DNA from: Candidatus Parcubacteria bacterium | Lineage (GTDB): Bacteria > Patescibacteriota > Patescibacteriia > UBA1558 > GWA2-36-10 | Assembly: GCA_018664825.1 (NCBI GenBank) | Contig: JABJNO010000010.1 | Span: forward strand, 8,832 to 72,831 | Reading direction: 5' to 3' | Length of the DNA stretch: 64,000 nt | In this document: positions 15,863-17,645 of the stretch, in pieces | Layout: every line of letters begins with the position of its first letter | How positions within the stretch are numbered: the first letter of the stretch is position 1 | Translations under genes and position numbers: made by a program | The notes under the pieces: generated by a model | Database searches by the model: none | What the model was told of the DNA's origin: nothing | Seen by the model: the letters and a program-made list of their open reading frames with translations, nothing else

Positions 15863-15939
15863 CCCGGGATTTTCCTCGTGATAATATACTTAGGTAATCA
15901 AAATTCATTACAAATACAAAATCTATGAAGCGTGTCCCA

Positions 15940-16165
15940 CATTTTGTGGGATTGGGCACGCAGAGATGGCTATTGCGCTAGTGATAGCTCGGAGGTCCCC
16001 GTAACCATGGACTAACTGATGTCGATCATTTTATATGATGCCAGAGCCAGTAAAAGTGGTCTTAATTATTTATTAAGGCAATAAAGGTGGTACCGCAGGA
16101 ATCAAACTTCTTGTCCTTTAAACACAATATTTTTGTGTTATGAGGATAGGGAGTTTTTTTATTGA
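15940..16165 (+). promoter_or_regulatory. Candidate T-box riboswitch leader, possibly Trp-specific
   Basis: AAAGGTGGTACCGCAGG at 16083-16099 matches the T-box consensus AGGGTGGTACCGCG. Upstream Stem I-like elements: AGAGA (15962-15966), distal hairpin GCTATTGCGCTAGTGATAGC containing AGUGA, and UGGA (16008-16011) as a possible Trp specifier. An imperfect hairpin followed by a T7 run at 16154-16160 could be the terminator. Confidence 0.45.
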
Positions 16166-16404
16166 CTTACACAGACATTTATGGTTAAGTAAAAAACCAA
16201 GTACATTACAATGCTATTTATAGCCAAATATTCGCGTAAAAGACGACAAGTCTAAAAATACAACAAAAGGAGAGTAAAAATGGGAATTAATCCGCCAAGC
16301 AGTAGCTTTTGATAGCTATCTAACCTAAAACAAACTAAATCCACCCTTGTAGACTACTGCAAGGACCCCGACTCAGGAAAAGGAACAACAAGGAGGACCC
16401 CACA

Positions 16405-17571
16405 ATGGTCTTGGATGTAAAACACCTACTCAAGGATCACGCTTACCAAAATGTGCCACTCAACTTTGATGAGGCATATGCCTTGGGTAGATATGCGCTA
16501 CAGGGATGCGCTGGAGATCCGCTTGCTCAGATCCAGAGTATTACTGTCTTGTCTACTTTACACAACAAAGCAACCTACGCATGGAAATGGGACATACGCA
16601 TGGAAGAGCACCATGGGCATAGTCTGCCCAAGAGCTCGGCCGAGCAAATTGCCGGCATCTGTGCAGCCATTTTTGACCATGATATTGCTAAGTCTGAATT
16701 CGGCTTTTTGGAGCCAAATGTGGATTTTGTCATGGACAACTGTGGCATGGGAGGCGATCTGGTAGTCACGGCAAACGTGAGTACTCTGGCCGCCTTTATT
16801 GCAGCTTCTGATGGTATTCCGATGTGCAAGCATGGTTCGCCGGCTAACGCCGACAGAGGCCAATACGGCAGTTCGGACTTTGTGTCCAAAATCTGCGGTA
16901 TCAATACTTGCGCTGATCGTGCTGAAGTCATCACTTGTCTGGAAAAACACCACTTTGCTTATACCGAAGCATTGGATACTCGCTACAAGAGGATCCACAT
17001 GCAGACGCATGAAGTGGCTCAACTTCCTCACATGAATGACATCATCGGACCGATTACCAATCCGGTCTCGCCAAAGATTCTCACTCGTCGTGTTTTGGGA
17101 GTCAATCAGTTGATTCCCCCTCGTATCATTGCTGAGGTCTATATGATCCTCAATGCGCAAGGTACTACCAACCTGAAACACGGTCTCTTTGTAAGGGGCT
17201 TTGCTGATGAATCGCGAATCAATGGTATGGACGAAGCTTCTGTTTGTCATGGTGGTACTCAGGTATCTGAGTTGCGCGATGGTGAGATCTTTGATTATGA
17301 TCTCGATGCAGAAAGCTTTGATATCCATGCCGTTCCTATTACGGCTATCCGACCCGAAGGTGACAAAGGTGAGTATTCTCTCAAGCTTCTGATGGGCGAA
17401 ACAAACGGTGAGCGCATGAATATGGTGCTTGCCAACGCTGCTTTGCTCTATTATGTTGCTGGACGCACTACCACCTTTCCCGAAGGCTTTGAAATGGCTA
17501 AGGCTGCTTTTGAAAGCGGCCGTCCACTAAAAACTATGCAAGCGGTAGCTAAGATGCTACCCAGGCCCTAG
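16405..17571 (+). CDS. Anthranilate phosphoribosyltransferase-like protein (TrpD / glycosyltransferase family 3)
   Basis: DNCGMGGD...CKHGSPANADRGQYGSSD corresponds to TrpD DTCGTGGD...AKHGNRA.SSKSGSAD. DIIGPITNPV corresponds to NVLGPLINPA. GMDEASV and ELRDGEIFDYDLDAESF also match TrpD. Strong RBS AAGGAGG. GC-rich. Confidence 0.65.
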   Translation: MVLDVKHLLKDHAYQNVPLNFDEAYALGRYALQGCAGDPLAQIQSITVLSTLHNKATYAWKWDIRMEEHHGHSLPKSSAEQIAGICAAIFDHDIAKSEFGFLEPNVDFVMDNCGMGGDLVVTANVSTLAAFIAASDGIPMCKHGSPANADRGQYGSSDFVSKICGINTCADRAEVITCLEKHHFAYTEALDTRYKRIHMQTHEVAQLPHMNDIIGPITNPVSPKILTRRVLGVNQLIPPRIIAEVYMILNAQGTTNLKHGLFVRGFADESRINGMDEASVCHGGTQVSELRDGEIFDYDLDAESFDIHAVPITAIRPEGDKGEYSLKLLMGETNGERMNMVLANAALLYYVAGRTTTFPEGFEMAKAAFESGRPLKTMQAVAKMLPRP

Positions 17572-17582
17572 TTTTATAACTC

Positions 17583-17619
17583 GCGCCAGCTGAATCATTC
17601 AGCTGGCGCTTTCTTTTTT
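17583..17619 (+). terminator. Rho-independent terminator
   Basis: GCGCCAGCTGAATCATTCAGCTGGCGC hairpin followed by TTTCTTTTTT. Confidence 0.8.
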
Positions 17620-17645
17620 ACTATATTTTATGATATTATATACTT

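Follow-up and report, generated by a model that had tools for sequence, protein, structure and literature searches.

A short-Stem-I T-box riboswitch probably controls a lone TrpD-like gene

We analysed a 64,000-nt window, by which we mean the whole stretch of DNA under study, of a Candidatus Parcubacteria genome bin (candidate phyla radiation, CPR, or Patescibacteria), and focused on the 542-nt leader which precedes a TrpD-like gene in it. A first-pass annotation, made from the letters of the sequence, had suggested that an untranslated leader of about 540 nt carries a tryptophan-specific T-box with a terminator/antiterminator switch in front of a lone, divergent TrpD-like gene, and this core reading is borne out by the RF00230 match, the folds and the covariation described below. 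With a probability of roughly 0.87, the region 15916-16160 is a tRNA-Trp-sensing T-box riboswitch, which would control the TrpD-like gene (16405-17571) by transcription attenuation. Together with its relatives it forms a class of Trp T-boxes, combining a short Stem I that lacks the elbow platform with an intrinsic terminator. This class is missed by standard annotation pipelines, default Rfam annotation included, because its members fall below the Rfam gathering score.

The Rfam T-box model, RF00230, matches positions 15916-16121 over its full length (model positions 1-219) with 58.9 bits (E value 3e-12 for the region scanned by itself and 2.9e-10 when all of the window is scanned), and this is the sole such match in the window. 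The comparison with RF00230 proposed in the first-pass annotation thus gave a significant full-length match, although one below the gathering score; a default scan of the window at that score returned tRNAs only and no T-box, and E-value reporting mode was required. Seven CPR relatives score 38-52 bits. The low score of the leader is mainly due to Stem I, which accounts for 22 nt against 70 in the model, and to a 39-nt insertion after the IIA/B region. The candidate promoter of the leader overlaps the stop codon of the preceding PfkB-like gene, and TTGACA-type promoters occupy the equivalent position in orthologous leaders.

The leader has a covarying T-box anatomy conserved among CPR loci

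With an alignment of the protein family as the starting point, 67 genomic loci were collected, of which about 50 belong to CPR bacteria and 18 are ascribed to DPANN archaea; where single loci have to be told apart, they are given by number (L001 and so on). The T-box motif was found by motif search upstream of the TrpD-like gene, on the same strand, in about 25 CPR loci, and a leader profile built from 23 leaders recognised 28 leaders among the roughly 50 bacterial loci, always on the strand of the gene and upstream of the TrpD-like operon, with no further match elsewhere in the loci or in the window. Covariation was assessed on an alignment of 23 orthologous CPR leaders, with nhmmer and explicit pair counts. 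In this alignment, 95.7% of the cells are paired and 33 of the 43 pairs show changes on both sides, while sliding the 3' partners by 1-3 columns left 39-57% paired and none of 500 shuffles reached any of the observed measures. All helices covary except for IIA, which is invariant.

Stem I of the window leader, 47 nt long, starts with a 4-bp base helix (15921-15924/15964-15967) that bears a UGA/AGA motif resembling a K-turn (kink-turn), continues with a middle helix of 5-6 bp (15930-15935/15956-15961; GCGUG(U)/(G)CACGC) and ends in a plain 6-bp hairpin (15936-15950). The elbow platform, made of the AG bulge and the distal loop as interdigitated T-loops, is absent, and in the relatives the distal hairpin is either variable in sequence or missing. 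Helices 1-4 of Stem I covary, and in its 3' bulge, which reads A-U-U-G-G and then G in the window, lies the Trp specifier. The following Stem II is 98.6% paired, with changes on both sides in five of its six pairs. The IIA/B region (15990-16012) includes an F-box-like CCGUAA, and pseudoknot IIB is paired in 100% of cases with compensatory changes at all four pairs (helices 5-7 being 98.6-100% paired). L068, the closest relative with a protein identity of 84%, has GCCC/GGGC in place of the GUCC/GGAC of IIB, which is a U-A to C-G swap. An extra helix, named IIC here, encloses a hairpin at 16025-16039 and represents a lineage-specific insertion relative to RF00230, to which these 39 nt remain unaligned; all five of its pairs show changes on both sides.

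Some details of the first-pass annotation have to be revised in light of this anatomy. Its Stem I-like elements AGAGA (15962-15966) and AGUGA (15980-15984) are present but were misassigned, the former being the 3' strand at the base of Stem I and the latter lying in the apical loop of Stem II and not in a distal hairpin of Stem I. The UGGA at 16008-16011, which had been taken for the specifier, is ruled out, as it is the 3' strand of the IIA/B pseudoknot with its compensatory changes; the Trp identity of the specifier was right and its position was not, the true UGG being at 15953-15955.

The leader thus resembles the canonical transcriptional T-boxes (RF00230; Bacillus subtilis tyrS and glyQS; the Trp-specific B. 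subtilis rtpA-ycbK and Streptococcus suis trpX) in its specifier plus purine within Stem I, K-turn-like Stem I base, Stem II, IIA/B pseudoknot, Stem III, 14-nt T-box sequence with a UGGN bulge and competing antiterminator and terminator, and it shares with the Trp-specific ones the control of tryptophan-related genes. It differs from them in the short Stem I with a plain hairpin above the specifier in place of the AG bulge/distal-loop platform, in the extra covarying helix between IIA/B and Stem III, in a score under the gathering threshold, in its CPR host and in having an orphan TrpD paralogue as the regulated gene. In the literature searched we found no paper connecting T-boxes with CPR/Patescibacteria, and the T-box database TBDB makes no mention of CPR.

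The T-box sequence takes part in one of two mutually exclusive folds

The near-exact T-box sequence that had been noticed in the first-pass annotation, AAAGGTGGTACCGCAGG at 16083-16099, is aligned to the T-box sequence of RF00230, with AAAGGUGGUACCGC spanning 16083-16096. It belongs to an antiterminator composed of helix A1 (16083-16087/16115-16119), a 7-nt bulge UGGUACC (16088-16094) and helix A2 (16095-16101/16108-16114); both helices covary and the fold has a predicted stability of -7.1 kcal/mol. The terminator hairpin which follows is far more stable (-25.7 kcal/mol, z -7.0, none of 200 shuffles being equally stable). A terminator ending in the T7 run had already been proposed at this place, and its position stands; the hairpin, previously described as imperfect, proved to be strong. 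Bases 16104-16119 are common to the 5' arm of the terminator and the 3' strands of the antiterminator, which makes the two folds mutually exclusive, and so the alternative structures on which the first-pass annotation had staked its proposal are present.

In the mechanism that we propose, transcription would start at the TTGACC/TAATAT promoter (15859-15887), and the nascent leader would fold into the short Stem I presenting UGG-G, followed by Stem II, the IIA/B pseudoknot, the extra helix and Stem III. The UGG specifier would then be read by tRNA-Trp through its CCA anticodon. If this tRNA is uncharged, its 3' end, G73-C-C-A, would also pair with UGGU at 16088-16091 and stabilise the weak antiterminator, leading to read-through into the gene, and if it is charged, the much more stable terminator with its U7 run would form and transcription would stop. 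The sequence elements, their covariation, the exclusive folds and the conserved linkage with the gene are observed, whereas tRNA binding, charge discrimination and read-through are inferred. By analogy with actinobacterial ileS T-boxes, decoding in the absence of the elbow platform would presumably rely on Stem II and IIA/B, and the strong conservation of these two elements fits such a compensation. The ileS T-boxes (class II, translational, with structures from Mycobacterium tuberculosis and Nocardia farcinica and with an intermediate or ultrashort Stem I) likewise have no elbow-binding motif, carry the specifier in a bulge or in the apical loop and display strongly conserved Stem II and IIA/B, presumably in compensation (PMC11297988, PMC7583486). 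They differ in having a Shine-Dalgarno (SD) sequestrator where the present leader has an intrinsic terminator, in an Ile specifier in place of Trp, and in phylum.

Several points weigh against this reading. The RF00230 score of 58.9 bits lies below the Rfam gathering score of 93. The bulge base of the window leader pairs with G73 only as a G-U wobble, the start codon of the TrpD-like gene is located 244 nt past the terminator, and a promoter-like sequence (TTGACT at 16166-16171, 17 nt, TGG-TTAAGT with the -10 element at 16189-16194), kept in L068 and L001, lies between the two. Finally, according to a review, a short Stem I accompanies translational control, and transcriptional T-boxes generally require a long Stem I whose elbow-binding double T-loop, absent here, serves timely capture of the tRNA (PMC7583486). 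On the other hand, in the class described here, which comprises 28 genome-derived and at least 108 metagenomic leaders, strong terminators go together with a short Stem I, and this makes the kinetic argument of that review directly testable.

A second promoter or translational control would explain the leader less well

The promoter-like site at 16166-16194 may allow some expression to bypass the switch. One may go further and assume that the T-box is real, while the TrpD-like gene is mainly transcribed from this second promoter, in which case the switch would add to a constitutive level or yield a short non-coding transcript. We consider this unlikely. The site does stand directly after the U-run, and L008, L022, L033 and L052 likewise have a TTGAC(T/C)-N17-TAnnnT site past the terminator; taken together with those of the window, L068 and L001, the sites conform to TTGAC(T/A/C)-N17-(TG)-TAnnnT/TTAAKT. 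But most T-box loci have no such site there (e.g. L004, L010, L027, L028, L029), and the site of the window, with a -10 element that matches at three of six positions, did not come up in the consensus scan. Moreover, the leader is kept across many CPR lineages and is elsewhere replaced by Trp leader peptides, which would be unexpected for an element that is bypassed.

The 244-nt spacer has no significant fold (z -0.3) and no Rfam match, and its comparison with L068 reveals conservation of the first ~65 nt and the last ~50 nt and not of the region with the upstream open reading frame (uORF). This 10-codon uORF (16280-16312), reported in the first-pass annotation together with its SD sequence, is indeed present, yet it is not conserved, as both its ATG and its SD are missing in L068, and it contains no Trp codon. 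Translational control, exerted through this uORF or through masking of the SD as in the short-Stem-I actinobacterial T-boxes, appears very improbable to us, even though a short Stem I has otherwise been described for translational T-boxes (PMC7583486, PMC11297988) and the uORF has a good SD. The SD of the gene lies ~270 nt from the T-box, where a terminator with U7 takes the place of an SD-masking helix. Of 116 leaders of the class, 114 have a strong hairpin abutting a U-run (median -29 kcal/mol) behind the T-box, and in view of this and of the distance of the SD in the window, we regard the class as transcriptional.

We also examined whether the spacer is a decayed LMWPc phosphatase gene, such as the one present at this place in L001, and rejected this idea (best tblastn E value 0.056; no LMWPc homologue in the window). 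In other CPR lineages, a gene for an EamA transporter, for a class I glutamine amidotransferase or for an LMWPc phosphatase, the last at times fused with the gene on one or the other side, stands between the T-box and the TrpD-like gene. LMWPc-TrpD-like fusions occur in L015 and L060 and an EamA-LMWPc fusion in L022 (proteins P0017, P0022, P0056 and P0097), and the fusion genes of all three loci are downstream of a Trp T-box.

A further motif, GUUCUUUNACAA, recurs in the stretch from the terminator to the SD in nearly all loci, be they of the T-box or of the leader-peptide type, and a degenerate copy of it is present at ~16204-16214 in the window. In the form (A)GUUCUUU(N)A(C/A)AA it precedes the SD of the first regulated gene by 10-60 nt, irrespective of the leader type (L004-L053, and also L007, L012, L013, L016, L041, L043 and L067, which have no T-box). 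Its UUCUUU could pair with the SD AAGGAG through G-U wobbles. A role of GUUCUUUNACAA as a genome-wide 5'-UTR signal was rejected, since 13 matches against 9 expected in the window represent no enrichment.

The leaders point to tryptophan as the sensed amino acid

UGG-G is invariant in all 22 genome-derived leaders in which Stem I can be delimited, where it lies between covarying helices; in L010, L017 and L030 it occupies the apical loop, in a manner resembling the ultrashort Stem I. A metagenome scan with the Stem II/IIA signature yielded 118 further leaders, and 108 of the 113 with enough upstream sequence carry U...N-UGG-G, with a median of 21 nt from the 5' strand to UGG. The base preceding UGG in this set is U in 84, C in 14, G in 6 and A in 4, so that only the UGG frame is conserved. 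At the other end of the tRNA, 14 leaders have T and 12 have C as the variable base of the T-box bulge, and none has A or G, while all six tRNA-Trp genes of the window and the loci have G73, which pairs with C or U. Seven tRNA genes were found in the T-box loci, and five of them encode tRNA-Trp.

By textbook rules of tRNA identity, the discriminator of tRNA-Gly is U73, which is unable to pair with UGGC. That the leader senses another tRNA, NUGGG being read as UUG or CUG (Leu) or as GGG (Gly), is scarcely credible: the bulge AUUGGG of the window formally permits UUG followed by a purine G, and its UGGU would pair perfectly with the A73 typical of tRNA-Leu, but a shifted frame would give codons for Leu, Val and Met, about half of the leaders have UGGC (including that of L028, whose tRNA-Leu, the only one available, has A73), the genes regulated by the class are trpS, trpB-like, trpE and TrpD-like, and the leader peptides at orthologous loci speak against sensing of Leu or Gly.

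These peptides are short open reading frames of 17-37 codons with WW or WWW, present in 13 of the 22 bacterial loci that have no T-box and the same gene downstream, and in none of the 28 T-box loci (Fisher p 1.4e-6). They usually lie 100-180 nt upstream of the TrpD-like gene and are mostly followed by a terminator-like hairpin and a U-run. As judged from sequence, they constitute independent support for the link with tryptophan. Constrained folding with a stalled ribosome revealed no obvious antiterminator in them, and hence we call them attenuator-like only. Like the ribosome-mediated attenuation of Escherichia coli trpL, the window leader would sense the supply of charged tRNA-Trp with termination as the output, and unlike trpL, it has no Trp-codon leader peptide and would bind the tRNA directly, whereas the orthologous CPR loci do use WW/WWW peptides. 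The leader peptides at ~100-180 nt are those of L007, L011, L012, L013, L020, L024, L025, L039, L041, L043, L063 and L067, and that of L037 is farther from the gene. A second pair of mutually exclusive hairpins after the terminator of the WW leader was also seen, e.g. UGUUGAUGG / CCACCAGCAC / GUGCUGG in L012.

Genes of the Trp_repressor family adjoin the TrpD-like gene in four loci. Three independent signals linked to tryptophan, the T-box, the WW leader peptides and these adjoining genes, thus converge on a gene with the TrpD fold.

The metagenomic members of the class precede other tryptophan genes

Downstream genes in the metagenomic set encode a TrpB-like PALP enzyme (15 loci), tryptophan--tRNA ligase (TrpRS; at least 12), TrpE (5) and the TrpD-like protein (11), and further ones an EamA transporter or a pair of an ELFV dehydrogenase and an aminotransferase. 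In L088, TrpE stands together with TrpG and a canonical TrpD, in which GTGGD and KHGN are kept, under a T-box of the same class. In CPR bacteria, the short-Stem-I Trp T-boxes may be the riboswitch on which amino-acid sensing mainly rests.

In L111, L060 and L108, the gene after the Trp T-box encodes an amino-acid dehydrogenase of the ELFV family; in L111 and L060 there follows a likely aminotransferase, judged by its sequence and not by a family search, and then the TrpD-like gene. This arrangement hints that tryptophan might be made from its keto acid.

The regulated gene encodes a predicted enzyme of the TrpD fold

The product of the regulated gene, identical to the NCBI entry HON36_01685 (100% over 99% of the length), matches a single Pfam family, Glycos_transf_3 (PF00591). 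The trpD model TIGR01245 reaches 145.5 bits, under its cutoff of 199.05, and aligns only with residues 105-383, leaving the N-terminal ~100 residues unmatched. Within the family, identity is ~60% across CPR and 41-50% in most DPANN loci. All 25 matches found in PDB by sequence are anthranilate phosphoribosyltransferases (AnPRT), and so are the top 50 Foldseek matches of the AlphaFold2 model (pLDDT 92), which align over the full length with TM 0.66-0.77 and ~20% identity.

The motifs for phosphoribosyl pyrophosphate (PRPP) and Mg are kept (GMGGD, KHG, GSSD, DE). In a profile alignment to PDB entry 9ucw, the Asn of KHGN is replaced by Ser145 and the Arg corresponding to M. tuberculosis R193 (R164 of Sso) by His202, both replacements being invariant in the family; this Asn and Arg are residues which we take to be the anthranilate-binding ones of TrpD. 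Entries of N138A and R193L variants are listed among the Foldseek results. Compared with AnPRT TrpD (TIGR01245; PDB 1ZYK, 1KGZ, 1ZVW), the protein has the same two-domain fold (TM 0.70-0.77) and the GxGGD, KHG, GSxD and DE motifs, and it differs in its low identity, in the Ser145 and His202 replacements and in having BtpA as a partner rather than trp genes.

The TrpD2-type identity entertained in the first-pass annotation did not hold, as the TrpD2/YbiB model NF006564 gave 15.6 bits against a cutoff of 257 and no YbiB occurs among the PDB sequence matches or the top 50 fold matches; a nucleoside or AMP phosphorylase (NP-II) was rejected as well, the closest matches in sequence and fold all being AnPRT and PF00591 being the only family matched. 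The sequence and fold comparisons place the protein in a separate TrpD-fold family common to CPR and DPANN, which by these tests is neither TrpD2/YbiB nor nucleoside phosphorylase. From the structural model and the motifs, it is a predicted PRPP-type enzyme of the TrpD fold with an altered acceptor pocket.

The gene that follows the TrpD-like one is BtpA in 55 of 68 loci, 14 of the 18 archaeal ones among them, and TrpRS adjoins the locus in 23 of 68, seven of them archaeal. Other recurrent neighbours are a HAD phosphatase, the short PfkB-like protein, a pyridoxal phosphate (PLP) decarboxylase, an M20 peptidase, chorismate mutase domain proteins and a nucleoside hydrolase. A PDB search with the BtpA sequence gave no match, and in the literature searched we found no paper connecting BtpA or trpD with CPR/DPANN. 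The TrpD-like/BtpA pair, conserved in the DPANN loci (L042-L066) and in most CPR loci, is often placed beside TrpRS and the PLP decarboxylase. Its distribution suggests a module shared or exchanged between CPR and DPANN, which would be under T-box, Trp leader-peptide or possibly TrpR-type control.

Because the gene is proposed to be induced by a shortage of Trp-tRNA, the TrpD-like protein most likely helps tryptophan supply through a salvage or biosynthetic step, and the pair with BtpA may perform such a step with PRPP and an acceptor other than anthranilate. The two propositions taken jointly, that the leaders constitute a large undescribed class of elbow-less short-Stem-I Trp T-boxes with terminators and that TrpD-like/BtpA carries out an unrecognised tryptophan step, we hold at somewhat less than even odds. 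The convergence of the three tryptophan-linked signals offers the first hint, from regulation, of what two widespread "hypothetical" families, TrpD-like and BtpA, may do, and a testable lead to a tryptophan-related pathway in CPR and DPANN, lineages which are thought to be devoid of amino-acid synthesis.

The window contains further tryptophan-linked genes

Positions of the features are collected in Table 1. Two of them had been omitted from the first-pass annotation: the TrpRS gene, located 2.8 kb upstream of the leader and belonging to the conserved neighbourhood, and the gene for tRNA-Trp, the predicted ligand. No T-box was detectable in front of the TrpRS gene, and scans with RF00230 and the leader profile found no second one anywhere in the window. 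The transcript of the TrpD-like gene is predicted to be monocistronic here, with a strong terminator directly 3' of the gene. As had been noted in the first-pass annotation, no other tryptophan biosynthesis genes are nearby (no TrpB, TrpE, TrpG or TrpC homologue in the 64 kb), and the TrpD-like gene is GC-rich beside its AT-rich PfkB-like neighbour (0.48 vs 0.27, with 0.36 for the window). The TrpRS, decarboxylase and TrpD-like genes have a GC content of 48-52%. GC at third codon positions is 0.48-0.56 in these three genes (12618-15108 and 16405-17571) and 0.22 in the intervening PfkB-like gene, and this contrast may reflect a recent transfer of the genes linked to tryptophan.

Table 1. Positions, strand and supporting evidence of the leader elements and the surrounding genes in the window.
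Feature	Position	Strand	Evidence
Tryptophan--tRNA ligase (TrpRS)	12618-13634	+	TIGR00233, 297.7 bits vs cutoff 176.75
Group II PLP decarboxylase	13663-15108	+	
Short PfkB-like protein	15176-15862	+	
Sigma-70-like promoter, candidate: TTGACC, 17 nt, TG-extended TAATAT	15859-15864, 15882-15887	+	scan, consensus match only
Intergenic leader, 542 nt	15863-16404	+	
Stem I, short, 47 nt	15921-15967	+	RF00230 alignment, folds, covariation
Specifier UGG (Trp) with conserved 3' purine, in 3' bulge	15953-15955, G15956	+	conservation in relatives
Stem II, conserved UGCGYUAGUG apical/S-turn region	15968-15989	+	RF00230 alignment
Stem IIA	15990-15992/15999-16001	+	
Pseudoknot IIB (GUCC with GGAC)	15995-15998/16009-16012	+	
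Extra helix IIC (16015-16019/16047-16051)	16015-16051	+	covariation
Stem III	16060-16078	+	RF00230 alignment, fold
T-box sequence and antiterminator	16083-16119	+	RF00230 alignment, fold, covariation
Intrinsic terminator, hairpin and U7	16104-16156, 16154-16160	+	fold, shuffle test
Spacer	16161-16404	+	promoter-like site, degenerate motif copy, uORF, SD AAGGAGG 16390-16396
TrpD-like gene, 388 aa	16405-17571	+	Pfam, NCBIfam
Terminator after TrpD-like gene	about 17583-17619	+	12-bp stem, 8 GC pairs, T-run
BtpA-family gene	17646-18455	+	
tRNA-Trp (CCA), G73, CCA end encoded; predicted ligand	42312-42389	-	ARAGORN, Rfam

Two unusual tRNA genes cluster with that of tRNA-Trp. In the tRNA-like gene at 41852-41947 (minus strand, 55.5 bits with Rfam, not called by ARAGORN), ~30 nt replace the 7-nt anticodon loop, and this may be an intron or an insertion. 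The tRNA at 41646-41724 (minus strand) has a 9-nt anticodon loop, CCUAAAAAC, and is called by ARAGORN as tRNA-Phe with the anticodon AAA. Elsewhere in the window, an open reading frame of 2535 aa (20303-27910, minus strand) seems, on inspection by eye, to contain Gly-rich and RHS/YD-like repeats.

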